Positions 37,042 through 53,176 of a stretch of DNA of 64,000 nucleotides are shown piece after piece. How positions within the stretch are numbered: position 1 is the stretch's first letter; each line of letters starts with the position of its first letter. The position numbers were made by a program, and so were the translations under genes. Below the pieces are notes generated by a model that was given only the letters and a program-made list of their open reading frames with translations, made no database searches and was not told where the DNA came from. The DNA is from Calditrichales bacterium. Lineage in GTDB: Bacteria > Calditrichota > Calditrichia > Calditrichales > J004. Where the stretch lies: assembly GCA_015493745.1 (NCBI GenBank), contig WGCN01000036.1, positions 9,799 to 73,798 of the forward strand, given 5' to 3'.

Positions 37042-37075
37042 TCTGTAATTTTCATTTCAACACTGAGATTTTAAT

Positions 37076-38320
37076 ATGACAAACGATCGTCAAGAGAAGG
37101 TTGATGAGCTAAGTATTCTTGATCTGCTTAGTACTTTGATTAAACACAGAAAACTTATCATTACCTGGATAGTATCAGTTACCTTATTCATGGTAGTATT
37201 CAGTCTGATTATGCCTGAAACCTATAAAGCCCGTGCCGTACTTTTACCATCTTCATCTGAAACCAGTTTTTTTGACGGAATAACCCAATCTCTGGGAATT
37301 GAAGGAGTGGGGGACCTGTTAGGCGCTGGTGGAAGTGACCAGTCCTATCGTTTAAAATCCATTCTTGAAAGCCGGACTATGGCTGAAAAGGCTATTGCAA
37401 AGTTTAATCTCCAAGAGCGTTATGGGGAGTTTTTACTTGATGATGCTATTAATGTTTTTGCCGGGCGCATAGACGTTTCGATCAATGAGGACGGGACAAT
37501 GAGCATTGTTGCCAGTGCCAAAACGAAGTACTTTTCTTTTGGATCGGAAAGTCGGGAAACGAGTAAGCTCTCTGCGGATATTGCTAACTTTCTTGTAGAT
37601 CAGTTAGATTTTTTGAACAAAGAGTTGAAATTGCAGAAGGCCCGCAATGAAAAGAAGTTTATTCAGGGAAGATTTGATAAAACAAAACATGATCTCGATA
37701 GTGTTTCCCTAAAACTTAAAGATTTTAGTGAAAAACATGGACTAATATCTCTGCCAGATCAAGTAAAAGCACTGGTAGAGATATCGGCGCAACTGGATGC
37801 ACAGATTTTAATTAAAGATGTAGAATTAACAACCCTGAAGAGTCAGCTAAATAATAAACACCCCATGGTTCTTCAACTGGAAAATGAAATAGAGAAATTG
37901 CGAAGAAAACTGAATGAGTTAAAAGGTGATGTAAACTCTACAGACATGGGTACACTTCTTCCTGGTTTTAAGGCCGTTCCTTCTCTTGCCATGCAGTTTT
38001 TTAATCTTAAGCGTGATGTTGAGGTACAAGGATTATTATATAAATTTTTAGTACAGCAATTAGAGCAAACAAAACTGCAGGAAGCACGCAATACACCAAC
38101 TATTCAGGTATTGGATTATGCGCGTGTCCCTCAAAGACGTACCAGCCCCTGGCGTACTCTGATGGTATTGATTGCCGTTTTTGTGGGTGGCATATTTGGG
38201 GTAAGCCATGCTCTTCTCAGAAATAAAATACAGTTTTTGCAGGATTCGGGAGATAAGAGTTATCTAAACCTGAAAAATACACTTGCATCTATGAAGACTG
38301 GTTTTTTCAAAAAAAAATGA
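37076..38320 (+). CDS. Wzz/GumC-type polysaccharide co-polymerase without kinase domain
   Basis: Two terminal TM helices, coiled-coil middle, IQVLD.A..P....SP motif. Confidence 0.82.
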   Translation: MTNDRQEKVDELSILDLLSTLIKHRKLIITWIVSVTLFMVVFSLIMPETYKARAVLLPSSSETSFFDGITQSLGIEGVGDLLGAGGSDQSYRLKSILESRTMAEKAIAKFNLQERYGEFLLDDAINVFAGRIDVSINEDGTMSIVASAKTKYFSFGSESRETSKLSADIANFLVDQLDFLNKELKLQKARNEKKFIQGRFDKTKHDLDSVSLKLKDFSEKHGLISLPDQVKALVEISAQLDAQILIKDVELTTLKSQLNNKHPMVLQLENEIEKLRRKLNELKGDVNSTDMGTLLPGFKAVPSLAMQFFNLKRDVEVQGLLYKFLVQQLEQTKLQEARNTPTIQVLDYARVPQRRTSPWRTLMVLIAVFVGGIFGVSHALLRNKIQFLQDSGDKSYLNLKNTLASMKTGFFKKK

Positions 38321-38426
38321 ATAAGTAAATATCAAAATTTTTAAGAGAAAACTTTTCAATGAACGATAGCAATTTCCTTTCGGCCATTGTTATATACAAA
38401 CAAATAGCTTAAAAGTTATCTGAACA

Positions 38427-39938
38427 ATGACTCTTGCTCACAAAGCTTTATCCAAACTTTCCATCCAGGCTGTTTCTCTTTCGATACAGGCTATTTTTCA
38501 AATTATTACATTAACTGTTTATGCCAGATACATAAAACCGGAGGCCTTTGGTGTTTTCGCTATTGCCGGCTTAGTCCAAAACTTTGCGGAAATGTTTTCC
38601 AGTACAGGCATTTCTTCTGCCCTGGTTCAACGAAAAAAAATTACCGGTGGACATATTTCGTCGGCACTTTATAGTGTCAGTCTGCTTAGTATTTTTTTCT
38701 ACCTTCTTATCTATTCCTTTTCCGGGTCTATATCCGAGTTTTATCAAAGCAAAGAGTTAGAGAGTGTTCTGAAAATGGCTTCACTCTCATTGATTATTCT
38801 TAGTATAAGCAGTGTACCCCGGTCTATATTGCAAAGGTCACTTCGTTTTAAGGAAATGATGATCTCGGATATTATACCTTATTTTATAGGTTATATCCTG
38901 TTAGGGATTTATTTGGCAATGAATGGATTTGGTGTTTGGACACTCGTTTATGCTATTTTACTAACTTCAACTTTAAAAATGTTTTTTCTGTTTTATTTTG
39001 CCCGTATAAAAATTTCATTTAAACGATTAGTTGTTTCGGCAAAAGAATTGGTATCTTACAGTGGCGGTATTACCTTGCTGAACTTGACAAATTCCCTTGC
39101 GCAATATATGGATAAAATCATTATCGGGCGGTTGCTCACAATGGAGCTGTTGGGTTTATATGAACGTATTTCTCATATTGTACTATTAATGAGTAAATAT
39201 TTGGGGAATACATTTGACTCCGTTTTATTTCCGCTTCTTTCGGGCATACAGGATGAAAAAAAGCGTGTACAGTCTGCATTTCTTAAAGCCTCTGAAGCAC
39301 TAAATGTTTTAATCCTGCCATTAACTGTTTTTATGATATTCTATAGCAGAGATATTTTACTTCTTGTTTTAGGTGAAGCATGGCTGCCTGCGAATATGGC
39401 TTTTAAAATACTGCTACTATTACCGGTTATTCGTTTAATTACCCGATTGTCGGATTCACTTGTCCGTTCACTTGGTGCTGTATATAAAAGTGTTTTTAGA
39501 AAAACAGGGTTCTTGTTGACAATTGTGATCAGTTTATTTCTTGGAGCCAGGTATGGCCTAACTGGTACTGCCTTTGGAGTATTGGTTGCCGTTATTGTTC
39601 ATTATCTTTTGATGCTTACACTTTCTTTATCCCTAATAGATATTTCATTTGTACGCTTTATAAGGATCTATGTGCATGGTATAGTTTTGGGAGCAATAGC
39701 AACTATCTTGTCGCTTATATCGTTTGGGGTAATTCAAATGATGGAAAGCTGGGATCACAAATATAATCTCTTTGTTTTGTTTCTTGACATTGTTTTATAT
39801 CTCATTATTATCTACAATTTCCCAAGGTTGTTAGGGGAGAATGTGATAAAGATTCTATATACTTTATTATTAAAAGTACCCCTTAAAGGGTCTGCTTATA
39901 ATAAGCTGAAAAAACGTTTAGAATTAACAGAAATATAA
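38427..39938 (+). CDS. wzx: Wzx flippase (PST family)
   Basis: Many TM segments; AR...PEAFG, G.GVWTLV, D.IIIGR......LGLY. Confidence 0.88.
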   Translation: MTLAHKALSKLSIQAVSLSIQAIFQIITLTVYARYIKPEAFGVFAIAGLVQNFAEMFSSTGISSALVQRKKITGGHISSALYSVSLLSIFFYLLIYSFSGSISEFYQSKELESVLKMASLSLIILSISSVPRSILQRSLRFKEMMISDIIPYFIGYILLGIYLAMNGFGVWTLVYAILLTSTLKMFFLFYFARIKISFKRLVVSAKELVSYSGGITLLNLTNSLAQYMDKIIIGRLLTMELLGLYERISHIVLLMSKYLGNTFDSVLFPLLSGIQDEKKRVQSAFLKASEALNVLILPLTVFMIFYSRDILLLVLGEAWLPANMAFKILLLLPVIRLITRLSDSLVRSLGAVYKSVFRKTGFLLTIVISLFLGARYGLTGTAFGVLVAVIVHYLLMLTLSLSLIDISFVRFIRIYVHGIVLGAIATILSLISFGVIQMMESWDHKYNLFVLFLDIVLYLIIIYNFPRLLGENVIKILYTLLLKVPLKGSAYNKLKKRLELTEI

Positions 39939-39942
39939 TATT

Positions 39943-40923
39943 ATGCCGGTATTATTTCTTGGGGACTTTTTTGTATCTCAACCAATAAAATGTGAAATCC
40001 CGTTAGACACATTTATTTTAAACCTGGAAGCACCAATTACCGGCAAGGGCCAACCGGCAAAAAATAAAATCAATTTGTGTTTTAATTCCGATTTTGATTT
40101 TATAAAGTTTATCGGTAGAAATCCCCTGGCTGTGAACCTGGCCAATAATCATATTCTTGATTTCGGAACCGAAGGCCTGCTTGAAACAATACGCTTTCTT
40201 GAGGAAAAGAAGATTCATTTTTTTGGAGCAGGTAAGGAAAAAGATAATTATAACAACCCTTACCTGTTTAAATACAAAAACAATACTATTGCCATGTTAG
40301 GTTATGTTAGCTCCGAAACAAATCCAATTTCCGGAGACCCGAAAATTGCTGACTGTGCTCTCTTTTCAGGTGAAAGAGTGAAAAATGACATCCAAAGCTG
40401 TCGCGGTCGTGCGGATATTATTGTGGTTAATCTGCATTGGGGAGACGAAGAGATACCCTTTCCCAGACCAGATGCAGTATCCGTGGCACATAAAATTGTG
40501 GATTGGGGAGGACATTTGGTGGTTGGACATCACGCACATGTAATTCAAAGTGTTGAACACTATAAAAACGGACATATTTATTATGGACTCGGGAATTTTG
40601 CTTTTAGTGATCTGGATGTACCCTATATGTTTGATGGGGTAAGGTATAATGGGCGTTATATAAAAAAATTAGACAAGTCTAATAAATACTCCATTGTCGT
40701 TGCGTTAGAGTATGATGGTGGTATTACCCATGCAACAACTTATTTTAATGGAGAATCCGTTGTTTTTAAAAAGAAACCTATTCCGTCCTGGATACCTGAG
40801 ACCTTTTTACTTTATAACTTTGCAAAATGGTTCCAACTACGCAAACGGATGCTGTACCGCTTTTTAAAATCACCTAAGAGAATAAATAGGTCTCATGTTA
40901 AATATTTTATCCGGGGAAAGTAA
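39943..40923 (+). CDS. CapA/PGA_cap family metallophosphoesterase
   Basis: LGD, NLEAP, LANNHILDFG, LHWGDE, GHHAHV, YGLGNF. Confidence 0.88.
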   Translation: MPVLFLGDFFVSQPIKCEIPLDTFILNLEAPITGKGQPAKNKINLCFNSDFDFIKFIGRNPLAVNLANNHILDFGTEGLLETIRFLEEKKIHFFGAGKEKDNYNNPYLFKYKNNTIAMLGYVSSETNPISGDPKIADCALFSGERVKNDIQSCRGRADIIVVNLHWGDEEIPFPRPDAVSVAHKIVDWGGHLVVGHHAHVIQSVEHYKNGHIYYGLGNFAFSDLDVPYMFDGVRYNGRYIKKLDKSNKYSIVVALEYDGGITHATTYFNGESVVFKKKPIPSWIPETFLLYNFAKWFQLRKRMLYRFLKSPKRINRSHVKYFIRGK

Positions 40924-42281
40924 TGGACGGCCTCCAAAAAGCCTTGAACTATCTGTTTACAGACAGGAAGAAAGCACGTTTTCAGATTTACCGTCGTCTG
41001 TTAGAAGATCAATTTGCGGAACCTCGAAAGCAGGAGACAATGCTAAAGGAGAATATTCGCACATTGCTGGATCATAGTTTTAGTCATGTGCCCTATTATA
41101 AAAAAATAATTAAAAATATGGATGTTAAAGCCACAGAATGGCAAACAGACCCTATTCGTTTTTTAAAGAACTTTCCAATTTTATCCCGACAGCAAATACA
41201 TAATAACCGGAACGAGTTGCTATCCACAGACTATCAAAAGCGCAATCCATATCCAAATGCCTCCGGCGGTTCCAGTGGTATGCCGGTTCACATTATTCAG
41301 GATGAATTTTTTTTTGAAAATGGGATCGCCCATCAACTTCTTGCAAATCATTGGCATGGAATGGATCCTTTTGACAGTATCGTTAAAATATGGGGAGCTG
41401 AAAAGGAGACATACAGCGGACGTAAACCTTTACTTTCATTTATCAAGGATTTCCTTAGAAATCGGTACGTGCTAAATAGTTTTGACTTGTCTCCATCACG
41501 GATGTATGAGATAATTAGGATTTTAAATAAAAAAAAACCAAAACTTATTTTAGCATATGTGGATTCAATTTATCAAATCGCCCGCTTTGCACGGGAAAAA
41601 AATATTAGGGTTAAACCACAACAAGCCATTCACTGCGGTGCCGGAACCCTGTATGATTTTATGCGGAAGGAAATAGAGACAGTATTTCAGTGTCCGGTTT
41701 ATAATCATTATGGTACAAGAGAAATGAGTTCAATTGCCTCTGAATGCAGGGAAAAACATGGTTTGCATTTGTTTGTTCAAAATGTTTATACAGAGATAGT
41801 TGATTCTAAAGGGAATCCTTGCCCGCCAGGCAAAGAAGGGCGGATTCTGGTAACGGGGTTAAATAATTTTTCCATGCCGCTTATTCGTTATGAGATAGGA
41901 GATATTGGTGTTTTGGAAAACAGTGGAACATGCTCCTGTGGCTGTACCTATCCTAAAATACGAAAGGTAATCGGTCGAAGTACAGAGTTAATCAAAGCTG
42001 CAGATGGTAAAATTATAATACCAGAGTTTTTTATCCATTTAATTGGTGTAAGCTGCAATGATGGCAGTATTCATTCGTTTCAGGTTATTCAAAAAGATTT
42101 GAATATAATAGAGGTGAAAATTGTAAAACATGAACCTTTTAAAGATTCGATTTTGAATAAAATAAAGTCAAAAATTAAAATTGTAATGGGGTCAGAATGT
42201 AAAGTGATTTTCAATTTTGTTGAAAATATTCCCAAAACCCCAACAGGTAAATACAAATACGTTATAAATGAAATGGTCTGA
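40923..42281 (+). CDS. phenylacetate-CoA ligase/CapK-like adenylate-forming enzyme
   Basis: VPYY, SGGSSG, NHYGTRE, MPLIRYEIGD, TGK. Confidence 0.85.
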   Translation: MDGLQKALNYLFTDRKKARFQIYRRLLEDQFAEPRKQETMLKENIRTLLDHSFSHVPYYKKIIKNMDVKATEWQTDPIRFLKNFPILSRQQIHNNRNELLSTDYQKRNPYPNASGGSSGMPVHIIQDEFFFENGIAHQLLANHWHGMDPFDSIVKIWGAEKETYSGRKPLLSFIKDFLRNRYVLNSFDLSPSRMYEIIRILNKKKPKLILAYVDSIYQIARFAREKNIRVKPQQAIHCGAGTLYDFMRKEIETVFQCPVYNHYGTREMSSIASECREKHGLHLFVQNVYTEIVDSKGNPCPPGKEGRILVTGLNNFSMPLIRYEIGDIGVLENSGTCSCGCTYPKIRKVIGRSTELIKAADGKIIIPEFFIHLIGVSCNDGSIHSFQVIQKDLNIIEVKIVKHEPFKDSILNKIKSKIKIVMGSECKVIFNFVENIPKTPTGKYKYVINEMV

Positions 42282-42282
42282 T

Positions 42283-43371
42283 ATGACAATGAAACGTATT
42301 GTTTTTTTTATAAATTCTTTAAAAACCGGGGGGGCTGAAAGGGTTTGTGTGACTTTAGCAAACAATTTTGTGGAAAAAGGTATACATGTTGTAATTATTG
42401 TATTACACTTAAAAGATTCTATCCTTAAGTCTGAGTTAGATCCGAGGGTTGGAGTTATCGATCTTAAATCTGACCATGCCAGATATGCCATATTTCGATT
42501 GTATAGATGGATTTGGAAGCTTAATCCCTCAAAAATTATTTCCTTTAGCTCTCAATTAACGGCGCTATTGGTTTTAGTTCGTTGGATTAGCCGCAATTCC
42601 TTTAAGATAATTTCACGAAATGTAACCAATCTTTCAAAGGCAAGAGGGCTACAAAAAAGTGTATGGCATAAAAATATAGTCTTTTTTTTCTTAATGAGAA
42701 CATACGCATATGTGGATAAATATATTGCGCAAACAGAAAAGATGAAGATGGATATGGTGAGAACGTTTTCGTTAAACCCGCAAAAAATAGTTGTGATACA
42801 TAACCCCGTAAATCCTAATTTACTGAAGCAATATGGAAGTAATGTGACTCGAAATAAGGAAATCTTATTTGTAGGAAGACTTTGTTCAGAAAAAGCTATT
42901 GATGAACTGTTAAATATTTTTAAGGATTTTCATAAAGTTTTGCCTGAGTATAAGTTACGTATAGTGGGGGATGGGCCCTTGAAAGAAAGCTTACAGCAAT
43001 TAGCGAGCACGCTGGGTTTTGAAGATGCTGTTATTTGGGAAGGGGCTCAAATAAAATTAGCCCCGTATTATCAACAGGCGAGGGTTGTGGTTTTGACTTC
43101 TATTTACGAGGGGTTTCCCAACGTGCTTATCGAATCAGTCTCACTGGGCACTCCTGTTGTTGCCTACGATTGTATCAGCGGGCCATCGGAAATTATTATC
43201 GATGGTCTGAATGGTTACCTTATTGAGAACCTAAATAAAAAAATGTTTAAGGAAAAACTTCTACAAGCTGTAAATGATAATTGGAATTATGAACTCGTAA
43301 AAGAAAGCGCCAAGGAGTTCTCTGCGGATAAGATCGCTACGGTTTATTTGAAAGAAATACAGAATGCATAA
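42283..43371 (+). CDS. GT4 glycosyltransferase
   Basis: GGAERV, VGRL..EK, YEGFPNVLIES. Confidence 0.88.
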   Translation: MTMKRIVFFINSLKTGGAERVCVTLANNFVEKGIHVVIIVLHLKDSILKSELDPRVGVIDLKSDHARYAIFRLYRWIWKLNPSKIISFSSQLTALLVLVRWISRNSFKIISRNVTNLSKARGLQKSVWHKNIVFFFLMRTYAYVDKYIAQTEKMKMDMVRTFSLNPQKIVVIHNPVNPNLLKQYGSNVTRNKEILFVGRLCSEKAIDELLNIFKDFHKVLPEYKLRIVGDGPLKESLQQLASTLGFEDAVIWEGAQIKLAPYYQQARVVVLTSIYEGFPNVLIESVSLGTPVVAYDCISGPSEIIIDGLNGYLIENLNKKMFKEKLLQAVNDNWNYELVKESAKEFSADKIATVYLKEIQNA

Positions 43372-44638
43372 TGAAAAGTTAAGTTTAACAGATATTTTGT
43401 CACTGAATATCATCTCTGTGATAATTCCTGTTTCTCTCATATTATTTACATTTGGCACCGATACGAGTTTATTTTATATAAACTGGGTTGTTGGTGTTTT
43501 GGTTTTGGGCTCGGTAACCATAAGCATATTATTTATAAAGCTTAAGATTAATAAAACCAGCCTAAAGGTATTTATATTTATGAATATGTGGTTGATTTAT
43601 GCTATTATTATTACACCTGTGGCTAAGAATCTCTCTTATCATATATCTTTCATTTTGTTAACAATTTTTTACAATGGATTAGGATTATACTTTATAAATA
43701 AAATAATCGAATCTCCTCAGAGATTTGCATTAACTATTGTCGGACTTAATATATTGTGGGTGTTTATAAATACCTTTGCCATGATATTTTTTTTCCTTAC
43801 TTCCGTAAATCAGGCAGATCAATCTTTTTCCGGTATTTTCGCCAATAGGAATCAGTTTGCTGTAGTTACTACTCTTCTGTTTACCTTTACGTTGTTTTAT
43901 AAAAAGTATTTTCGGAGCAGCATTCCTGTTAATATTTTAATGATTATTAATATCATCATGATTTTTACCAGCTTATCGAGGAAAGGATTCATTGGAATAA
44001 TACTGATCCTGTTTTTATATAATTGGCAACGATTAAAAAGGGTTAAGAAGCTAATGGCAATCTTTGCCATTTCTATTCTGATAATTGTTACATTTATAAC
44101 AGACAATCCTCTGAAAGAAAGGTTTAAGCTCGTAAAGGAAAAAACACCCGCCTTTACTTCGGAAAGGGTTGAGTTAAGTGCTTTTGAACGTATGTGGTTG
44201 TTGATTAATGGGACAAAGTTGTTCCTTGAACATCCATTGACAGGGGTAGGTGTTAATAACTCTCTGGTTTACCTAGAAACGCCTATGCAAAAATTAGAGC
44301 GGGCCCAGGGAGACAAAATGGACAAAGAGGGCAAATATACTCATATCAATTATCTGGAAATGTTGGTAAATGCAGGCATTCCAGCCTTTATATTATACTA
44401 TGTCCCAATTTTACTTATTTTTGGACGTGTTATTTCAAGAACTAAAGAATCCGATAGATACAGTATGATAGCTATCCTGCTTATTTATAAGTTATTTTTA
44501 GATATGGCGATGGTAAGCTATTATGATTTTGCACACTCATTACTGCTGGCCTATGTGTTTTTAGCTTATTTAAAAGCGAAGCCTAATAGTGAAAATATAC
44601 CCCGTCTAAATTCAACAGGTGTCCTTGCCGGTGAATAA
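43364..44638 (+). CDS. O-antigen polymerase/ligase family (Wzy_C)
   Basis: Many TM helices, GIFANRN, SLSRKG, HPLTGVG, THINYLE...G. Confidence 0.8.
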   Translation: MHNEKLSLTDILSLNIISVIIPVSLILFTFGTDTSLFYINWVVGVLVLGSVTISILFIKLKINKTSLKVFIFMNMWLIYAIIITPVAKNLSYHISFILLTIFYNGLGLYFINKIIESPQRFALTIVGLNILWVFINTFAMIFFFLTSVNQADQSFSGIFANRNQFAVVTTLLFTFTLFYKKYFRSSIPVNILMIINIIMIFTSLSRKGFIGIILILFLYNWQRLKRVKKLMAIFAISILIIVTFITDNPLKERFKLVKEKTPAFTSERVELSAFERMWLLINGTKLFLEHPLTGVGVNNSLVYLETPMQKLERAQGDKMDKEGKYTHINYLEMLVNAGIPAFILYYVPILLIFGRVISRTKESDRYSMIAILLIYKLFLDMAMVSYYDFAHSLLLAYVFLAYLKAKPNSENIPRLNSTGVLAGE

Positions 44639-45731
44639 AATAAAAATACTTCATTTCTTCTCTTCCTGGGAAAAGGGGGGTGCTGAAATATGGTTGCTTA
44701 GATTTCTGGAAAAATTTATTAAAGACAATCGTTTTGAAAACCATGTCGGTGCTTTATATGCCAAGGGTGTCCTGAAGGATAAATTTAAAGCATTGGGCCT
44801 GCCTGTAATTAATCTAAATATGAAATATCTTTTCGACCCGAAAGGAATCAGTGATTTAAAGAGGTTATTAAGAACGGAACAATATGATATAATACATACA
44901 CACCTGTTAAAAACAGATTTAGTATTTCAATACGCGACCCTTAATGGAGGGGCTAAGCTTGTAACAACCAAGCATAATAATTTCTATAAAGCTGGATTTT
45001 TAAATTCGATTATCGAGAATAAAATAAACAGGAATTTTGATTATATTTTTTGTGTAAGCCGTGATGTGTATCAGGCTGTAACTCAGGCCATACGCGTTCC
45101 GGAAGAGAAAATAGGCATAGCTTATCCGATTCCTGTATCTAAGGAATCCATTCCGGTAAAGCGGTTAACTAAAGATAAGACCAGCCTGATTATAGGAACT
45201 TTGGGAAGGCTTCATCCGGTTAAAGGTTTAAAATATCTATTAGAAGCCTGGCCTCTTGTGCTAAAGAAGGCTCCACAGGCAAAGCTGTTAATTGCCGGGC
45301 CGGATAGCTATAATTATAAAAAGGTGTTGTTAAAAAAAATACAAGATAAATATATAACCGAAAGCATCAGTTGGTTGGGGGAAATTGAGGATATCCCGGC
45401 ATATTTCTCTAAAATTGATATCTTTTGCACTCCTTCCATATCCGAAGGCTTTCCTCTTAGTGTTATCGAGGCCATGAGTGCCGGAAAACCGGTCATTGCT
45501 TCTGAAACTGGAGGCATTCCCGAGCAGGTTATACATATGCAAAACGGACTATTATTTAAAGTTGGTGATATAAATGCCATTGCAGATGCTGTTTTGTATT
45601 TTGCCAATAATCTATATAAAATAGAAGAGATGGGAAAAAAATCCATTGAGCGGGTAGTCGAAAATTTTAATATTGAAAATAGTATTGAAAAAATAAAACA
45701 AGTTTACTTGAATCTTTGCCCCGGGGAATAA
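44619..45731 (+). CDS. GT4 glycosyltransferase
   Basis: GGAE, DIIHTH, GRL..VKG, EGFPLSVIEAM. Confidence 0.88.
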   Translation: MSLPVNKIKILHFFSSWEKGGAEIWLLRFLEKFIKDNRFENHVGALYAKGVLKDKFKALGLPVINLNMKYLFDPKGISDLKRLLRTEQYDIIHTHLLKTDLVFQYATLNGGAKLVTTKHNNFYKAGFLNSIIENKINRNFDYIFCVSRDVYQAVTQAIRVPEEKIGIAYPIPVSKESIPVKRLTKDKTSLIIGTLGRLHPVKGLKYLLEAWPLVLKKAPQAKLLIAGPDSYNYKKVLLKKIQDKYITESISWLGEIEDIPAYFSKIDIFCTPSISEGFPLSVIEAMSAGKPVIASETGGIPEQVIHMQNGLLFKVGDINAIADAVLYFANNLYKIEEMGKKSIERVVENFNIENSIEKIKQVYLNLCPGE

Positions 45732-45735
45732 GACT

Positions 45736-46905
45736 CTGAAAAACATAAAAATAATCCGCATTCAATCGCGCATTGTTATTGGCGGCCCCTCTTTGCAAAC
45801 TATTCTGCTTAGTAAATACTTTAACAATGATCATTATACTAGTTTATTGGTTGGTGGCGGTGAGGATACCGATGAAAAAAGTATGCGTCTGATTTTGGAA
45901 AGGGAGCAGATACCCTATCTGATACTTCCTGATATGGGAAGGGATGTGTCTCCATTTTCTGATATAGTGTCCTTATGGAAAATCTACCGGCTGTTGCGCC
46001 GTGAAAAACCTGATATTGTTCATACGCACACTGCAAAGGCAGGAGCAATTGGCCGGATGGCTGCTTTTATGGCAGGTGTGCCTGTAATTATCCATACCTT
46101 TCACGGGCATATTTTTCATTCATATTTTCCTAAGTGGAAAAGCCGCTTGTTTTCTCAGGTAGAACGTTTCTTGTCAAAGCTATCCAATGCTATTATTGTA
46201 ATCAGCAAAAGGCAGTATAATGATATTGTCAACATTTTTAAGATTGCACCTGCACAAAAAGTATATACCATTCCATTAGGTTTTGACTGGGATGCATTTG
46301 ATAAAGAAGAAGCAGAAATAGATATCAGGAAAAAGTATAATATCCCGGAAAATAAAAAAATCATTACCATTATTGGTCGTCTCGTACCGATAAAAAATGT
46401 TTCAGCTTATATTAGGATTGTTCGTAAGATCGAAGAATTGGCCCCGGACTCTTTTCATTTCCTGATTATTGGTGATGGTGAACTTCGTGGTGACTTAGAG
46501 TTGCTAGCCCGTCAGGAAGGAATAAGTGATCATCTTACATTTACGGGTTGGTTGCATCTTTCAGCATCAGTCTACCATCAGCTTGATCTGGTTATGTTAA
46601 CCTCGCTCAATGAAGGCACACCGGTAACGTTAATTGAGGCTCTCGCTTGCGGTATTCCTTGCCTGGCTACAGATGTAGGTGGTGTTGGTGATATTTTTGA
46701 ACTTTACAATAGTAAGAGTTTTATTGATCTCAACGCGCCCGGGCAGGTAGCGAAGCACGTTATTGATATATTAAAAACCGGAGAAAAACCCGATAGTGTA
46801 AAACAATCCCGGATTCGATCTTTTTATTCAGCCAAAAGATTGGTGGTGGATATTGAAAACCTCTATCTGAAACTATTGAGTCATAATAATCAGCGGGGGA
46901 GATAG
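45736..46905 (+). CDS. GT4 glycosyltransferase; probable CTG start
   Basis: In-frame KIIRIQSRIVIGGP upstream of the tracked TTG; GGGGA RBS 8 nt before CTG 45736; HTHTAKAG, NEGTPVTLIEA. Confidence 0.85.
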   Translation: MKNIKIIRIQSRIVIGGPSLQTILLSKYFNNDHYTSLLVGGGEDTDEKSMRLILEREQIPYLILPDMGRDVSPFSDIVSLWKIYRLLRREKPDIVHTHTAKAGAIGRMAAFMAGVPVIIHTFHGHIFHSYFPKWKSRLFSQVERFLSKLSNAIIVISKRQYNDIVNIFKIAPAQKVYTIPLGFDWDAFDKEEAEIDIRKKYNIPENKKIITIIGRLVPIKNVSAYIRIVRKIEELAPDSFHFLIIGDGELRGDLELLARQEGISDHLTFTGWLHLSASVYHQLDLVMLTSLNEGTPVTLIEALACGIPCLATDVGGVGDIFELYNSKSFIDLNAPGQVAKHVIDILKTGEKPDSVKQSRIRSFYSAKRLVVDIENLYLKLLSHNNQRGR

Positions 46906-48621
46906 GTGCTTAGTTCGGTAAAAAAAATATTTCATCTAGTAATATTATTTACTTTTTTCCTATCAACATCATTCCTATTTGCTCAAAACCCGGCTTCCGT
47001 GGCGGTGCATCACCCCGTTTACGACTTTATCGACCGCATGGAAGCCCTGGACGTAACCGGTAACCTGTTAAGCGGCGCGCGGCCCCTCTCCCGGGGAAGG
47101 ATTGCCGCGATTCTCGGTGAGGTCGATAAAAAGCGCTCCATGCTTACAGCCATCGATCGCCGGAGGCTGGATGACTATCTGCTCGACTTCCGCTATGAAA
47201 TCGACGCCCATAAAAAATATGATCTGATCCCCGAAGGCCAGACATGGTACAGCACATTGGCCTCCTGGGAGAACTTTAAAAAGGATGTGCGCCGCAATCT
47301 GAGTCAACCCTATCCCGAGGAGGAAAATCATCTCTTTATCTGGGAACAGGGCGACAGCAGCTTTTATATGGACTATCGTCAGCTTTTTAGCTATGACGGT
47401 CGCATCAATGGCCCCTCGCGCAACGCCAATGAGCAAACCTACCAATTCCGGGGCACGGTCGGTAACTTTTCCTTTCAATGGCAGCTCAGCACACAGGCCA
47501 TTCGCGGCGCTGATCTGGAATACCGTCGGCAAGACCCCCTGCTTAAGGGCACCTTCAGTCAGGAAAGCGAAAGCGGGGCTACCACCTTTGCCGACCGTAC
47601 CGGTGGTGAGCTGGCCTGGCATACACGGGCCTTCGACGTCTCCTTTGCTCAACAACCCCTGCGCTGGGGGGCGGGAGCCTCGGGGCAGTTGACTCTCTCC
47701 GATTGGGCCGAACAGTATCCCTATATCAGTATTAATAAAAATTGGGGATGGGGGCGCTTTACCATGATCCACGGAAAGCTGCAATCCTTTCAACAGGGCG
47801 CCCTGGAAGACGGTACCCGTCTCTATCCCGATAAGTGGCTGGCCGCCCACCGGCTGGAAATTAGTCCTTTCGGCAACTTCTCCTTTGCCCTGAACGAAAT
47901 GTTTATCTATGGCAACCGCTATGCCGACTGGAGCTATCTTTTTCCTCTCAATTTCTACCGCGCCGTGCAACACAAACTGCGCGACCGGGACAATGCCACC
48001 ATTGCCCTGGACGCTAAATGGATAGTCCTGCCCGGTGTTAAACTATACGCAACCATTTTTCTGGATGAAATGAAGTTCGATAGCCTGGGCACCAACTGGT
48101 TCGGCAACAAGCAGGCCCTGCAAACGGGACTGGATTGGTATGACCCCCTGGGCTGGGCCAACAGCCGCTTCACCGCCGAATATGTGGCTATCATGCCCTG
48201 GGTTTATACCCATAGGTTTGCCGTTAATCGTTATGAGTCCGATGGACGCTCCCTGGGGTACTGGGCGGGGCCCAACAGTGAGGTGCTCTACTTTAAACTG
48301 GAAAACGAGCCCCATGCCCGTTTACGGCTGGGGGTAAGCTGGCGGCAGTTAAAAAAAGGGCACAACACGGAAAATGAAAATATAGGCGGCAATATCCTGC
48401 AGGGGCGCAGCCTGTTACTGGGCACGCAAACCGAGCCCCGGGAAAAGCGCTACTTTCTGGAAGGTGATCTGGAAATACGCCGCGAACTGACTTTGATGGC
48501 CCGGTATGAAATTTTCAACGATTTATATCTGTCCGCTTCGTATATTTTTACCCACGGGGAGCGGAAACAGATCAACGAAAACTATCAGTCCCTGCACTTC
48601 GGTTTCCTGTTTGATTACTGA
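46906..48621 (+). CDS. capsule assembly Wzi-like outer-membrane beta-barrel
   Basis: Signal peptide, HPVYDFIDR, AAHRLE, YL.P..F......DN, C-terminal aromatic FGFLFDY. Confidence 0.65.
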   Translation: MLSSVKKIFHLVILFTFFLSTSFLFAQNPASVAVHHPVYDFIDRMEALDVTGNLLSGARPLSRGRIAAILGEVDKKRSMLTAIDRRRLDDYLLDFRYEIDAHKKYDLIPEGQTWYSTLASWENFKKDVRRNLSQPYPEEENHLFIWEQGDSSFYMDYRQLFSYDGRINGPSRNANEQTYQFRGTVGNFSFQWQLSTQAIRGADLEYRRQDPLLKGTFSQESESGATTFADRTGGELAWHTRAFDVSFAQQPLRWGAGASGQLTLSDWAEQYPYISINKNWGWGRFTMIHGKLQSFQQGALEDGTRLYPDKWLAAHRLEISPFGNFSFALNEMFIYGNRYADWSYLFPLNFYRAVQHKLRDRDNATIALDAKWIVLPGVKLYATIFLDEMKFDSLGTNWFGNKQALQTGLDWYDPLGWANSRFTAEYVAIMPWVYTHRFAVNRYESDGRSLGYWAGPNSEVLYFKLENEPHARLRLGVSWRQLKKGHNTENENIGGNILQGRSLLLGTQTEPREKRYFLEGDLEIRRELTLMARYEIFNDLYLSASYIFTHGERKQINENYQSLHFGFLFDY

Positions 48622-48641: not shown

Positions 48642-51095
48642 TTGGAGCCATCTAACTACTATATCATCGCGCTTGTCTTTGCCGCGGGCACCCTCGTTTC
48701 GCTTGGGTTGACACGGCTGGTGCGGGCCTGGGCCATACAGCGCCGGATCGGTGTTTTCCCCAACGAACGCATGGTTCATACCGGTTTTATACCACGCATG
48801 GGCGGTATCGGCATCATCGGCGGCTTTTTGGTCGCGCTTATCCTGTCGGCTTTGCTGTTTCACAGTTATCTGCAATGGGAATGGCCGTATGTGCTGATTG
48901 TTAGCGGAGCCCTGCTGATGGGCGGGCTGGGCATCTATGACGACCGTTACGGACTGAATGCGCCGCAGAAATTTGCAGGTCAGTTTTTGGCCGCCACCCT
49001 GGTCATTCTGGGCGGCTGCCGCATAGATGTGCTGGTGAATCCCTTTGGTCTGGATCTGAATCTGGGTTGGTTCTCCATACCGCTGACCTATCTATGGCTA
49101 ATAACCGTTACCAACGCGGTTAATCTGCTGGACGGGCTGGATGGACTGGCCGCCGGCGTCAGTTTTATCGCCGCCCTGGTGTTTGGTTTGATCGCCTTTC
49201 TGCATAACAATATGATCATCGTTGTTTTTAGCGTAAGCCTGATGGCCGGTCTGTTGGGCTTTTTACGCTATAACCGTCATCCGGCTTCTATTTTTATGGG
49301 GGATACCGGGTCGCTTTTCCTGGGTTTTCTGTTGGCCGCCCTTAGCCTTAAGGCCTTTACCACGGCCGGAAATCATATCGAGATGCTGTTGCCGGTTATT
49401 GTGCTGGCGGTGCCCATCGGCGATACCACCGTGGCTTTTTTCCGCCGCTTGAACAACGGACGGCACCCTTTTAAACCGGACAAGGATCATTTGCATCATC
49501 GCCTGCTTTACCTGGGGCTTACCCACCGGCAGGCCGTGCAGATCATCTACTTTGCCGCCGCCGCATACGGCCTGGCTGCGATAATACTGGTGCTGGAAGC
49601 GGAAATCAGCGGACTGATATTGCTGCTTCTGGTTATTGTCCTTTCCGTTTTCGGCTTAAAGCGCCTGGGCTATCTGGAGGCGCGCAAGTTCAAAACCGTT
49701 ACCGGCAGCGAGGATTTTTTACGCATCCAAAAGGAATTGGCGCCCATATCCATCAAGCGTTTTCTGCACCGGCTTCTGCTGGGTCTCAGCGATGTGCTAA
49801 TGGTTAACCTGGCCTTGTACGTTTATGTCTGGTTACGTCATCACTATCATATCGGTCAGGGCGGCGTATTGGACCCGGGCGAGATCCTGACCCCCGTTCC
49901 CATGCTGATCGTTACCCTCTACTGGATCGTGCTGTTTATTTTAAACGATCTGTACAGTATGCGCTGGGACATCTCCCGTTTTGACAAGATGCGCCGTATC
50001 AGCAAAACCATTCTTGTGGGTATTTTGCTTTGGTTTATCATCACCTGGGATGGCGCCCTGTCCATCTCCGAAGGACGCATGGCCATTCTGCTCTATGCCG
50101 GTCTGTTACTGCTTTTTGTCAATGCGGGGCGTCTGCTGGTGATCAGCGTGGAAAAGCGATGGCGCATTCTGGAATACGCGCCGCAAAACACCCTGTTGAT
50201 CGGCGCCACATCCCGGGGGCACAAGCTGCTTAAGGATATCCGTAAAAATCCACACCTGCTCTATAATGTGGTGGGTTTTGTAACACAGGACGGCCGACCG
50301 GAGCGCTTCAGCAACCTGAGCTGCCTGGGTACCTATGAGGATATACCATCGCTCATCCGCAACCGGGGCATACATGAGGTGATCATCGCCATAAACGAGC
50401 AAACCCACGATGAACTGATCGGTTTGATCGCCGCCATCGATGACATGAAGGTGGTGTTAAAGATTGTGCCGCAATATTACGATATTCTTTCCGGCCATAA
50501 AACCGAGGAGATTACCGGCCATCCGCTGATACGCCTTTTTCCAGATCATATGCGTATGTGGCAATGGCTGCTTAAACGCCTGGCCGATATTGTCCTGTCC
50601 CTGTTTTTTCTCACGCTCTTTTTCCTGCCGGCCCTGCTTTTGGCCCTGTTGTTAACGCTTACCGGGGTTCATCCCCCGTTAGTTATCGAAAACCGTATGG
50701 GCAAGAACGGCCGGGTTTTCGGACAGCTTAACTTTAATGTGCAGGGGCGTTCCCCCTTGCAGCGCTGGTTGTACAAAACCAATATCTACAAACTGCCGGA
50801 ACTGATCAATATACTTCTGGGCTCCATGAGCTGGGTGGGGCCGCGTCCGGAAAGTCCGGACAAAGTGGAACGCCTGCGCAGCCGTATAAAATTCTATAAC
50901 CGCCGTTTTCAGATACGGCCCGGGTTAACCGGCTGGGCGCAGGTGCGTTACCGTTACGATGATTCCATGCGTTCGCATCGGGATCAGCATAAACAGGATC
51001 TCTTTTATCTGGAAAATATGTCCCTTACATTTGATTTGCGTATTTTATTGCGTTCGCTGGTCATCTTCTTTTTTAAACGATCAAAAAGTAAATAG
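48642..51095 (+). CDS. fusion of a WecA/MraY-family polytopic phosphoglycosyltransferase and a degenerate WcaJ/WbaP-type module
   Basis: N-half: PRMGG, YDD, NAVNLLDGLDGL, FMGDTGS, HLHHRL. C-half: TM helices, LLIGA Rossmann-like domain, KRLAD, SWVGPRPE, RPGLTGWAQV. Confidence 0.88.
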   Translation: MEPSNYYIIALVFAAGTLVSLGLTRLVRAWAIQRRIGVFPNERMVHTGFIPRMGGIGIIGGFLVALILSALLFHSYLQWEWPYVLIVSGALLMGGLGIYDDRYGLNAPQKFAGQFLAATLVILGGCRIDVLVNPFGLDLNLGWFSIPLTYLWLITVTNAVNLLDGLDGLAAGVSFIAALVFGLIAFLHNNMIIVVFSVSLMAGLLGFLRYNRHPASIFMGDTGSLFLGFLLAALSLKAFTTAGNHIEMLLPVIVLAVPIGDTTVAFFRRLNNGRHPFKPDKDHLHHRLLYLGLTHRQAVQIIYFAAAAYGLAAIILVLEAEISGLILLLLVIVLSVFGLKRLGYLEARKFKTVTGSEDFLRIQKELAPISIKRFLHRLLLGLSDVLMVNLALYVYVWLRHHYHIGQGGVLDPGEILTPVPMLIVTLYWIVLFILNDLYSMRWDISRFDKMRRISKTILVGILLWFIITWDGALSISEGRMAILLYAGLLLLFVNAGRLLVISVEKRWRILEYAPQNTLLIGATSRGHKLLKDIRKNPHLLYNVVGFVTQDGRPERFSNLSCLGTYEDIPSLIRNRGIHEVIIAINEQTHDELIGLIAAIDDMKVVLKIVPQYYDILSGHKTEEITGHPLIRLFPDHMRMWQWLLKRLADIVLSLFFLTLFFLPALLLALLLTLTGVHPPLVIENRMGKNGRVFGQLNFNVQGRSPLQRWLYKTNIYKLPELINILLGSMSWVGPRPESPDKVERLRSRIKFYNRRFQIRPGLTGWAQVRYRYDDSMRSHRDQHKQDLFYLENMSLTFDLRILLRSLVIFFFKRSKSK

Positions 51096-53176
51096 TGATG
51101 TTGCCTGAAATTTCAATAATTATCGTCAACTACAATGTCCGGGATTTTCTGGAACAGTGCCTGCTTTCCCTGAGGCGGGCCCTGGCTCATATCCCCTCCG
51201 AGATCTGGGTGGTGGACAATAATTCCGTGGACGGCAGCGTGAACATGCTCCGGGAACGTTTCCCCGAAGTGCGGCTGATCGCCAGCAAAAGCAATCTGGG
51301 CTTTTCCGGCGGGAACAATCTGGCCCTGAAACAGGCGCGGGGACGTTTTATCGTGCTGCTCAACCCGGACACGGTGGTGCAGGAGGATACCTTTAGCAGC
51401 CTGCTGCGGTTTTTTGAGGAGCATCCCGATGCTTCCGCCGCCACCTGCAAAATTCTGAATCCCGACGGTAGTTTTGCCGTGGATTGCCGCCACAGCATTC
51501 CCACACCCAGTACCGCCTTCTGGAAGCTGTTGGGGCTGAATCGCCTTTTTCCCAAAAGCAAAATCTTCGGACGCTATAACCTCACCTATCTGGATGAGAA
51601 CGACACCTATCCGGTGGAGGCCATTTCCGGCTCTTTTATGATGATCAAAAGGGAAGTGGTGGAACAGGTGGGGCTTTTGGATGAAACTTTTTTCATGTAT
51701 TGCGAGGATATCGACTATTGCCACCGTATCAATCAGGCCGGCGGTAAAATCTACTATACCCCCCAAACACAGATTGTTCATTATAAAGGGGAAAGTTCCA
51801 AGGCCAATAACCTCGATTATGTAATCACCTTTAACCGGTCGCTTTATCAGTTCTATAAAAAACATTACCAGCAAAAATACATCTATCCCTTTAAATGGCT
51901 GATCTTACTGGGGGTAATCCTGCGCGGCGCCTTTATTTACATGCGCAATGTACTGCGTAAATATTTTACGGTGCTTATGGATGTGGCCATGCTTAACCTG
52001 GTGCTGCTGTTTACCTTTTGGCTGCGTTTTGAGATGAAAGGCGGCTTTTCCTGGGACAGTTTCTTCAGTCAGTATATCATCATCCATCTGCTGACCACGG
52101 TAACCTACCTGTTCAATGCCTTGCTGTTTGATATGATCAAGCAGGATCGTTTTTCGCCGGAAAAAGTGCTGAAGGTACTGGGGGCCACCTTTCTCTTTGT
52201 ATCGGCCCTGACTTTCTTTTTTAAGCAGTTCGCCTTTTCCCGTCTGGTGGTGGCCATGGCCGCCATCGGCGGATTTCTGGCCATTGTGGGTTGGCGTTTG
52301 CTGTTTAACCGCTACGGGGCCAAATATTCCGGTGCGCTGGAAAAAGAGTTCTTTCATAAACGGGCGCTGATCGTGGGCGATGACCAGGAGACCGTGGAAC
52401 TACTTAAAAAACTGGATCGCCAGCCCCTGGCCGGCATGAAGGTGGAAGGGGTGGCCGCCATAGACGATGACCGTATCGGGCATAAACTGGATGCCTATCC
52501 CATTGTTACCTCGATCGGTCAAATCGATGAATACGCCCGTCTGAAGCGCGTTAATCTGATTATTTTTTCCACCCACAACATCGCCTATGAACGTATTCTG
52601 GAAACCATGACCCGTCTGCATGATTTAAACGTGGAGATAAAAATGGTGCCCGGACATCTGGAATATATGATCGGCAAGTCGAATATCGAGCGTTTTGAAA
52701 GCGTACCGCTGGTGGAGATTGATTATGCCTATAATAAGCCGTTTAACCGCTTTATCAAGCGGTTTATGGATATCGGGCTGACCCTGACTCCCGTACTGAT
52801 CCTGACCGTGCCGGTACTGTTTGCCTTACCCTTTAACCGGCAAAAATATTTCCGCCGCCAGTTAGCGCCCAGGCTGGGCAAAAAATTCCATTTTCTCGAT
52901 TACCGGGAAAAGGGTCTGTTTCGTTCCTGGGCGCGTCTCTTTTCCGTGCTTTTGGGCAGAATATCCCTGGTAGGCGCCCCGATACAGGACGATCCGGTCG
53001 CCTCGCCCCTGTTTTACAAACCCGGACTGACCGGTATTGTCCAACTCTATCCCGAAAGGGTAGCGCGCCTGGGTAACAGCCATGAACTGGAACTGAGCTA
53101 TTTAAAAAACCATTCGCTTTTTCTTGATATGGAACTGTTGTTGAAATCCCTGTTTCGAAAGGGACGCGGGGAATAA
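51095..53176 (+). CDS. fusion of a WbbL-like GT2 glycosyltransferase and a degenerate WcaJ/WbaP-type module
   Basis: SIIIVNYN, VDNNS.DG, NLGF..GNN, LLNPD, FFMY.EDID; then TM helices, ALIVG domain, KRFMD, SLVG, KPGLTG. Confidence 0.88.
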   Translation: MMLPEISIIIVNYNVRDFLEQCLLSLRRALAHIPSEIWVVDNNSVDGSVNMLRERFPEVRLIASKSNLGFSGGNNLALKQARGRFIVLLNPDTVVQEDTFSSLLRFFEEHPDASAATCKILNPDGSFAVDCRHSIPTPSTAFWKLLGLNRLFPKSKIFGRYNLTYLDENDTYPVEAISGSFMMIKREVVEQVGLLDETFFMYCEDIDYCHRINQAGGKIYYTPQTQIVHYKGESSKANNLDYVITFNRSLYQFYKKHYQQKYIYPFKWLILLGVILRGAFIYMRNVLRKYFTVLMDVAMLNLVLLFTFWLRFEMKGGFSWDSFFSQYIIIHLLTTVTYLFNALLFDMIKQDRFSPEKVLKVLGATFLFVSALTFFFKQFAFSRLVVAMAAIGGFLAIVGWRLLFNRYGAKYSGALEKEFFHKRALIVGDDQETVELLKKLDRQPLAGMKVEGVAAIDDDRIGHKLDAYPIVTSIGQIDEYARLKRVNLIIFSTHNIAYERILETMTRLHDLNVEIKMVPGHLEYMIGKSNIERFESVPLVEIDYAYNKPFNRFIKRFMDIGLTLTPVLILTVPVLFALPFNRQKYFRRQLAPRLGKKFHFLDYREKGLFRSWARLFSVLLGRISLVGAPIQDDPVASPLFYKPGLTGIVQLYPERVARLGNSHELELSYLKNHSLFLDMELLLKSLFRKGRGE

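Follow-up and report, generated by a model that had tools for sequence, protein, structure and literature searches.

Phosphoglycosyl transferases (PGTs) start nearly every bacterial surface glycan, and the membrane organisation of these first steps is an open question. In a known scheme a polytopic PGT of the WecA/TagO type acts first and a second-sugar transferase follows, as in the linker-unit logic of WecA and WbbL, and pairs of an enzyme with a pseudoenzyme paralogue are a general concept. Large monotopic PGTs (monoPGTs) and bifunctional ones, in which the monoPGT is joined to a glycosyltransferase (GT), an acetyltransferase or a similar enzyme, are well described (passages of PMC10942596, PMC11626204 and PMC12776464). 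According to passages of the first of these reports, WbaP is an obligate dimer formed through the beta-hairpin of its domain of unknown function (DUF), which is the dimer interface; the DUF also binds UMP, UDP and UTP, and UMP inhibits the enzyme beyond the active site (PMC10942596). In EpsZ, the region that matches the WbaP DUF hairpin is where a response regulator exerts its action (passage of PMC12802240).

We analyzed a DNA window of 64,000 nucleotides from a Calditrichales bacterium (GenBank assembly GCA_015493745.1, contig WGCN01000036.1, positions 9,799 to 73,798), the whole stretch to which the coordinates below refer. Two adjacent genes in it, labelled A and B, encode fusion proteins. 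Gene A (48642..51095, 817 aa) joins a WecA-like polytopic PGT to the body of a large monoPGT (Lg-PGT) without the catalytic dyad, and gene B (51095..53176, 693 aa) joins a GT2 enzyme of the GT-A fold to a degenerate Lg-PGT body, as assigned from open reading frames (ORFs), Pfam, AlphaFold2 (AF2) models and Foldseek. All window features lie on the + strand, and residue numbers are those of the window proteins A and B. We tentatively read the pair as a conserved two-step initiation module of the Wzx/Wzy-type pathway in Calditrichota, with the dead bodies scaffolding both enzymes, a proposal that we hold with slightly less than even confidence.

Loss of the catalytic dyad in both large PGT bodies

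The dyad sites were placed by alignment to the solved structures of PglC (8g1n, 8e37) and WbaP (8t53). In PglC numbering the catalytic dyad is Asp93-Glu94, at a position that the alignment verified. In A, Y716-K717 (50787..50792) stand in place of Asp-Glu, and LNFNV (50727..50741) replaces the (Y)KF(K/R)(S/T)M motif, with loss of the catalytic-site lysine; the lysine of PglC YKFKTM aligns with N697. In B, R610-S611 (52922..52927) align with the WbaP dyad, GPRP reads GAPI, and the KF(K/R)(S/T)M region falls outside the match to the Bac_transf profile. A preliminary description, made from the window sequence alone, had placed the altered segments IYKLPEL at 50784-50804 and FRSWARL at 52919-52939 and had reported the dyad and the KFRxM motif as lost from both C-terminal modules. 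The segments are located there, and the alignments and the homologue sets bore out both losses.

These sets comprised 131 A sequences (111 database proteins with a length of 780 aa or more, and 20 taken from those genomes of the phylum that are most distant) and 134 B sequences; all named sources of the homologues were Calditrichota or Caldithrix. Tyr occupied the Asp position in 120/131 A homologues (92%) and Lys the Glu position in 117/131 (89%), other pairs within the family being HY, YR, HK, FR, VN and AK, and Pro719 was kept in 128/131. D-E was present in 1/131 (P0119, which also has KFRSM and PRPER). The B site showed 107 distinct heptads among 134 sequences, with D-E in 0/134. The loss of the dyad is fixed, far beyond chance, across the 131 A and 134 B homologues. 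A repositioned acidic dyad was also looked for, and no new invariant acidic pair was found in the PGT domain in the alignment of A homologues. Since canonical monoPGT chemistry requires an Asp nucleophile, neither module is an initiating monoPGT, and because the nucleophilic Asp, the partner Glu and the KFRSM lysine are all replaced, the A and B bodies no longer do PGT chemistry. The sole initiating activity in the pair would be the WecA-type domain of A, with the GT2 of B as the natural next step. Matches to PF02397 are not readable as active initiating enzymes.

The one other monoPGT of the window's genome, L001 (G000:C54:26996-30550, - strand), has intact KFRSM, RIDELPQ and GPRPERP motifs. 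It is a 335-aa stop-to-stop open frame and the only intact monoPGT of the genome; it has a DUF-like N-terminal part and no four-helix bundle in the open frame, an architecture between small and large PGTs.

The Tyr-Lys pair of A could in principle catalyse another reaction, with a nucleotide or a polyprenyl-linked compound as substrate. The pair is not drifting, the GPRP, YNRR, RPGLTG and C-terminal D..Y..N.S...D motifs are invariant or nearly so among A homologues, and the domain folds confidently. However, other dead A-type lineages have different pairs (NK, QK, EK, ER, KY), the pair varies within the family as listed above, B has no conserved pair, and to our knowledge there is no chemistry for a Tyr-Lys-type site in a monoPGT fold. 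A new catalytic role for this site is therefore very unlikely.

The domains of A were examined by Pfam and by structural comparison. Pfam matched Glycos_transf_4 at residues 85-237 (6e-42), CoA_binding_3 at 436-610 and Bac_transf at 645-809 (2e-34, 118.9 bits, profile positions 1-177 of 179). The AF2 model had a pLDDT of 88.4 and a pTM of 0.86, and Foldseek ranked WbaP (8t53) first, followed by MraY (TM-score 0.74-0.81 on the target) and PglC (TM-score 0.78); the Foldseek alignment to 8t53 covered 442 columns with A and 433 with B. Residues 1-345 (48642..49676) are the polytopic PGT (Glycos_transf_4), whose motifs are intact by conservation and by alignment to MraY structures. D100-D101, N158, N161, D164-G165-L166-D167-G168-L169, F218-M219-G220 and H283/H285/H286 were invariant in 130 sequences and correspond to the signature of polytopic PGTs (PF00953, WecA/MraY): DD, NxxNxxDGxDGL, (V)FMGDxGS and the His cluster. 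The only Glycos_transf_4 genes in the window's genome are A and MraY, which lies between murF and murD. The model of WecA proper (TIGR02380) scored 135.9 bits on A against a cut-off of 326, and a UDP-GlcNAc 2-epimerase near A is only circumstantial as to UDP-GlcNAc specificity.

The Lg-PGT body of A begins with a four-helix transmembrane bundle at residues 381-500 (49782..50141), supported by AF2 (helices 371-402, 418-434, 446-467 and 477-507) and by the TIGR03025/03023 match, which starts at residue 383. It continues with a Rossmann-like DUF (CoA_binding_3, PF13727) at residues 501-612 (50142..50477), the counterpart of the WbaP beta-hairpin at 613-644 (50478..50573) and the pseudo-monoPGT domain at 645-817 (50574..51092), the last delimited by Bac_transf, conservation and the PglC alignment. 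Besides the four motifs named above, the pseudo-monoPGT domain retains KRxxD and the Pro kink; K645, D649, P760, G761 and G764 are invariant, and R646 and P662 are conserved at 90% or more. In the linker before the bundle (residues 346-380; 49677-49781) a small beta-hairpin is predicted, with strands 350-354 and 359-363, and R341, G343 and E346 are invariant at this linker between WecA and bundle; to judge from the model, it may be a structured hinge between both membrane domains.

In B, Pfam matched Glycos_transf_2 at residues 7-192 (5e-25, 88.8 bits), CoA_binding_3 at 362-519 and Bac_transf at 614-686 only (profile positions 93-174 of 179, 1.6e-8, 34.8 bits). The AF2 model had a pLDDT of 84.7 and a pTM of 0.68, and Foldseek retrieved GT-A fold enzymes together with WbaP 8t53 (rank 3). 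Residues 1-260 (51095..51874) are the GT2 catalytic domain, as judged from invariant columns and alignment to solved GT2 enzymes. D41, N90-P91-D92 and E204-D205-x-D207 were invariant in 134 sequences, the DxD motif reading NPD, so that B has the fold, the nucleotide-binding Asp, the DxD-type motif and the acceptor-side ED..D motif of GT2/GT-A enzymes. The preliminary description had called this enzyme a WbbL-like GT2. The GT2 assignment stood on Pfam, fold and motifs, but the WbbL likeness is weak: the model of WbbL-type rhamnosyltransferases (TIGR01556) scored 50.4 bits against a cut-off of 200.55, outside membership of that family. That both N-terminal enzymes look active agrees with the invariance of the WecA-type and GT2 catalytic motifs among homologues.

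The C-terminal module of B consists of a transmembrane bundle and DUF (CoA_binding_3) at residues 291-520 (51965..52654; Pfam and AF2, with helices 291-411 and Rossmann-like strands 422-518), a hairpin-equivalent segment at 521-553 (52655..52753) and a PGT remnant at 554-693 (52754..53173). The remnant, in which Bac_transf matches only from profile position 93 to 174, retains KRxxD, LVGAP and KPGLTG, and its central part is lost or variable; K555, D559 and G644 are invariant, and R556, P643 and G647 are conserved at 90% or more. The NCBIfam models of WcaJ, WbaP and EPS sugar transferases matched both A and B from the transmembrane bundle on, with scores far under their cut-offs.

Selection on the modules and co-conservation of the pair in Calditrichota

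Codon comparisons were made between the window and five related genomes, with dN/dS taken only where dS was unsaturated. The data showed dN/dS values of 0.05-0.18 for segments of the C-modules and of 0.06-0.20 for the catalytic domains. The modules are thus under purifying selection, and the relaxed selection that the preliminary description had named as speaking against a retained role was not seen. The pseudo-PGT of A was as conserved as its WecA domain (identity 96 vs 89%, 72 vs 68% and 62 vs 61%), and the PGT remnant of B diverged fast, with 35-42% identity where the GT2 had about 80%. The segment matching the WbaP hairpin was the most conserved part of the A protein (78-100% identity in pairwise comparisons) and of the B C-module (73-85%). 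The two C-modules are about 23-25% identical to each other. With the chemistry lost and the fold and selection retained, the C-modules have the properties of pseudoenzymes, which speaks for a structural or regulatory function and against a chemical one.

The distribution of both genes was investigated in 86 species genomes of Calditrichota, 53 of which were of high quality (at least 90% complete). A was found in 77/86 and B in 77/86 genomes, and each in 53/53 of high quality. Both were missing in 8 genomes, whose completeness was 52-87%; in G041 only A is present, at the end of a contig, and G039 gave only a partial GT2 match. A and B occur together in 76 genomes, and in 68 of these A stands directly before B on the same strand, giving 71 adjacent pairs with a median gap of 41 nt. 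In the remaining 8 genomes the genes lie on different contigs, and no genome has both apart on one contig. The co-conservation and adjacency of the two fusions suggested in the preliminary description therefore hold within the phylum. An apparent split of A in G078 was rejected, being an assembly break with overlapping contig ends. The bin G015 holds two A-B pairs (G015:C17 and G015:C139), one of them 99-100% identical to the window pair; this may reflect bin contamination (4% reported) or a very recent transfer.

Some members depart from this pattern. In L141 (G042:C22:653900-659500), a frameshift interrupts A where WecA is linked to the Lg-PGT body, and B of G042 is short (417 aa), with the GT2 and a DUF-like piece, no transmembrane bundle or PGT remnant, and serS directly after it. 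G043, of the same genus, gave a short B match only.

The modules could also be decaying leftovers of once bifunctional enzymes, with no present function. The remnant of B would fit this, as it evolves fast, is shorter in the sister-phylum orthologues described below and is lost in G042. However, the dN/dS values already contradict decay, full-length open frames are kept in 53/53 high-quality genomes although phylum members go down to 37% identity, and both modules fold confidently. We consider a functionless relic hardly credible.

At the A-B junction TAGTGATG (51093..51100) the stop codon of A (TAG, 51093-51095) overlaps the start codon of B (GTG, 51095-51097), with an ATG in the same frame 3 nt on, at 51098. 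This is the overlap at 51095 given in the preliminary description; it is read directly in the sequence, and the ORF ends are exact. The pair forms the end of a Wzx/Wzy-type polysaccharide cluster (34700..48621; Pfam) that comprises UDP-GlcNAc 2-epimerase, Wza, Wzz/Wzc-like, Wzx, PGA_cap, AMP-binding, three GT4-family GTs, Wzy and Wzi, and it is followed by cydAB, serS and an acyltransferase gene. The glycan genes upstream varied among six other genomes, in which only the A-B pair was constant; a Wzi-like gene lay upstream of A in 3/6 (one a weak match), and serS with the acyltransferase downstream in 2/6. Within the window, positions 36000-46000 form a low-GC island (33-39% vs about 50%) that spans the Wzc-like, Wzx, PGA_cap, AMP-binding, GT4-family and Wzy genes, as is typical of serotype-type clusters that are exchanged horizontally. 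In the comparison with G032:C228 (L136), dS fell along A from 0.76-0.85 (WecA, transmembrane bundle) to 0.1-0.3 (DUF, PGT) and was 0.01-0.08 across gene B. This drop indicates that a recombination breakpoint lies within A and that close relatives have exchanged the glycan cluster upstream.

Relatives beyond the phylum and origin of the modules

An exhaustive search over 1.84 billion representatives was made for WecA-LgPGT fusions. Fusions with an intact monoPGT site were found in P0119, P0241 (source label Ignavibacteriota), P0243 and P0246, and dead fusions with pairs other than Tyr-Lys were those listed above. P0273 is a fusion of GT2, DUF and Bac_transf with an intact site (233.8 bits). P0250 (821 aa) is the reverse case, with a degenerate WecA (motifs lost, 33.6 bits) and an intact large monoPGT (223.9 bits). 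A scan of named genomes by the most conserved peptides gave mostly plain WecA genes, because these peptides are WecA motifs; the useful hits were L061, L108 and L124.

We also investigated 401 genomes of a sister phylum, the one holding G086 (a Chlorobiaceae record). An A-type fusion was present in 4/401 (L150:5953-8436, L151:6123-8603, L152:5955-8429 and L153:6024-8495), and all four had intact KFRSM and Asp-Glu (Bac_transf 220-234 bits). Intact-looking polytopic-monotopic double-PGT fusions thus exist: L150-L153, P0119, P0241, P0243 and P0246 look, from their sequences, like double initiating enzymes in which all motifs of both PGT types are kept. At 3/4 of these loci the cluster also contains a B-type gene, 2-4 kb downstream of the fusion, and the fourth locus stops at a contig end. 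The B-type proteins there are 667-681 aa long, with 39-42% identity to window B over the full length, no dyad and a shorter PGT remnant.

B-type genes as such were found in 247/401 genomes (E <=1e-60), most of them full length among the matches listed. The co-conservation of the two fusions proposed in the preliminary description thus breaks down outside Calditrichota, with B-type in 247 and A-type in 4 of 401 genomes. All 6 sister-phylum B-type loci that were scanned had an active large PGT (460-488 aa, 232-240 bits) within a few kb, and also a small GT2 and accA; 4 more (within L154-L163), compared by gene sizes and order, were alike in both. The B-type GT2/pseudo-Lg-PGT proteins are therefore a widespread and seemingly uncharacterised family, found in roughly 60% of the genomes sampled from a major phylum and located beside an active WbaP-like enzyme in the loci examined.

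At L155 a PorZ-like gene of type IX secretion lies directly upstream of the B-type gene. In the genome of the window (G000), the C-terminal sorting domain of type IX secretion was matched 78 times and a PorZ-like gene lies at G000:C199:5938-6396, so that genome very likely has type IX secretion with many cargo proteins. The link between B-type genes and type IX secretion comes from the one annotated PorZ neighbour and from these sorting-domain matches and PorZ-like gene in G000. Papers on P. gingivalis glycosyltransferases carried no domain description by which the B-type family could be matched to a named enzyme.

A shorter form, consisting of WecA, the transmembrane bundle and the DUF (PF13727) with no PGT domain, was found in 11 representatives (L108:6941-8881, P0247, P0257, P0270, P0271, P0300, P0320, P0334, P0342, P0353 and P0379; P0270, P0271 and P0353 have an additional PglD_N match) and in 21/401 sister-phylum genomes, where it does not adjoin B. 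These proteins bear on the possibility that the bodies are nucleotide-sensing regulators, in which the DUF would bind UMP or UDP-sugars and feed back on the UMP-releasing WecA and on the GT2, the PGT-like domain serving only as structural support. The nucleotide binding of the WbaP DUF and the UMP inhibition beyond the active site (passages of PMC10942596) are consistent with such a role, as are the frequency of the shorter form and the DUF-like piece that the short B of G042 retains without a PGT remnant. However, the pseudo-PGT of A is as conserved as the DUF, and Y716, K717, P719, GPRP, R754-R755 and RPGLTG are near-invariant, beyond what passive support needs. Sensing as the main role is improbable.

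The origin of the modules was analyzed with a tree of 68 Lg-PGT-type modules, made by a quick search with support from the Shimodaira-Hasegawa-like approximate likelihood-ratio test (SH-aLRT) only. All B-type modules formed one clade (support 100) on a long stem. The Calditrichota A modules and some other dead ones formed a clade (99) beside the intact-dyad fusions, and since a second dead clade stands apart, the dyad was lost at least twice among A-type fusions. The B clade fell among WecA-fused modules (SH-aLRT 95), and the approximately unbiased (AU) test did not reject its placement with the clade of P0273 and module-PGTs (p 0.39). Judged from these sequences, the B module is old, widespread and of single origin. 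It was already dead while A-type relatives had an intact monoPGT, and A lost its dyad later. The two modules had been presented as twins; B is instead one old lineage that died earlier, and tree and AU test leave an origin as the twin of A not established. Two relationships were rejected: the A module as orthologue of the sister-phylum Lg-PGT beside B, as those enzymes group with P0273 and P0376, and the joining of B with L061 in a first tree, which was flagged as long-branch attraction.

A putative two-step initiation module and its known counterparts

In the two-step module proposed here, the WecA-like polytopic PGT of A would transfer a sugar-1-phosphate, probably N-acetylhexosamine-1-phosphate (HexNAc-1-P), to polyprenyl phosphate, and the GT2 of B would add the second sugar. 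The WbaP-like bodies would be kept as folded, membrane-embedded, non-catalytic modules, whose four-helix bundle, DUF and hairpin may keep the enzymes together at the membrane as a dimeric assembly. The most economical assembly would be an A-B heteromer, which would set the GT2 beside the site where the lipid-linked acceptor is made, and the UMP/UDP-binding DUF may add product sensing. B-type proteins beside an Lg-PGT body, active elsewhere and dead in Calditrichota, could represent an enzyme-pseudoenzyme partnership in which the chemistry of the partner was later replaced by the fused WecA. The scaffold interpretation follows from the dead bodies being under selection, from their WbaP-like fold and from the dimer-interface segment being best preserved.

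Complex prediction with A 380-817 and B 290-693 gave an ipSAE of 0.01 with alignments A2 and A3, in a run without controls that counts neither for nor against a contact. Several observations weigh against the scaffolding proposal. Rate co-variation between the A and B C-modules was lower (partial r 0.17) than between other domain pairs (0.23-0.46; partial Mantel, 26 genomes). Because B-type genes are common without an A-type fusion, the B module needs no dead A partner, and because many WecA proteins carry only the bundle and DUF, the DUF rather than a PGT-PGT contact may matter. The B module can be dispensable, as in G042 and probably G043. The contact between A and B is something we infer, and the sugar specificities of both enzymes are putative.

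By analogy with WbaP, homodimers could explain the conservation equally well. Each dead body would then self-dimerise and simply anchor its own catalytic domain in the membrane as a dimer close to polyprenyl carriers, with A and B acting in sequence and making no contact. The WbaP homodimer through the DUF hairpin (passage of PMC10942596), the occurrence of B-type without A-type in most sister-phylum genomes, the unspecific co-variation of the C-modules and their low mutual identity all argue for such anchors. On the other hand, the strict adjacency and translational coupling across the phylum, and the recurrence, in other phyla, of B-type next to a gene that bears an Lg-PGT, as would be expected for an enzyme and its pseudoenzyme paralogue, argue against them, although adjacency and neighbours are still compatible with homodimers. 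We regard homodimeric anchoring alone as unlikely, while giving it real weight.

A wider version of the scaffolding proposal can be drawn from both phyla together. B-type proteins would be obligate heteromeric partners of a large PGT body across the FCB group, the first enzyme-pseudoenzyme pair in the PGT superfamily, building a conserved lipid-linked glycan, for example one that anchors or links the cargo of type IX secretion. The Calditrichota partner would have gained WecA and then lost its monoPGT chemistry, so that the complex runs on the polytopic PGT while two dead monotopic bodies serve as the scaffold that hands the lipid-linked sugar between enzymes. This whole chain is speculative and, taken together, improbable.

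In the literature searched, no dyad-less PGT modules, polytopic-monotopic PGT fusions or A-B pair were described, and no enzyme-pseudoenzyme pair for phosphoglycosyl transferases; O'Toole et al. (2021), who reportedly catalogued monoPGT fusions in a network study, might list some of the fusions. The A-B pair shows, across a whole phylum, a naturally occurring large PGT body that has been kept after the loss of its chemistry. It sets the non-catalytic roles of such bodies (dimerisation, nucleotide binding, carrier-lipid handling, partner docking) apart from catalysis and offers clean test constructs.

Four kinds of known system resemble the pair. Like enzyme-pseudoenzyme pairs, it has a dead paralogue kept under selection beside an active or formerly active relative, the pairing here being inferred from the genes. 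With the WecA and WbbL scheme it shares a polytopic HexNAc-1-P transferase followed by a GT on a lipid-linked monosaccharide, with putative sugar specificities in A and B; unlike A and B, the known systems of that scheme are separate proteins without Lg-PGT bodies. With the large monotopic PGTs (WbaP, WcaJ, CpsE; PF13727 and PF02397; 8T53), A and B share the bundle, the Rossmann-like DUF, the hairpin, the re-entrant helix with KRxxD and Pro kink, PGxTG and the C-terminal motif. They differ from these enzymes by the missing Asp-Glu dyad and KFRSM lysine and by the extra N-terminal enzyme, and B further lacks the central PGT part and the PRP motif. As in bifunctional PGTs (Bi-PGTs), a monoPGT module is joined to an enzyme of the same pathway in one polypeptide, with P0273 as the intact-looking counterpart of B and P0119, P0241, P0243, P0246 and L150-L153 as those of A. 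However, Bi-PGTs have two competent domains, and in A and B the monoPGT half is without its dyad and catalytically dead, which makes both proteins monofunctional.

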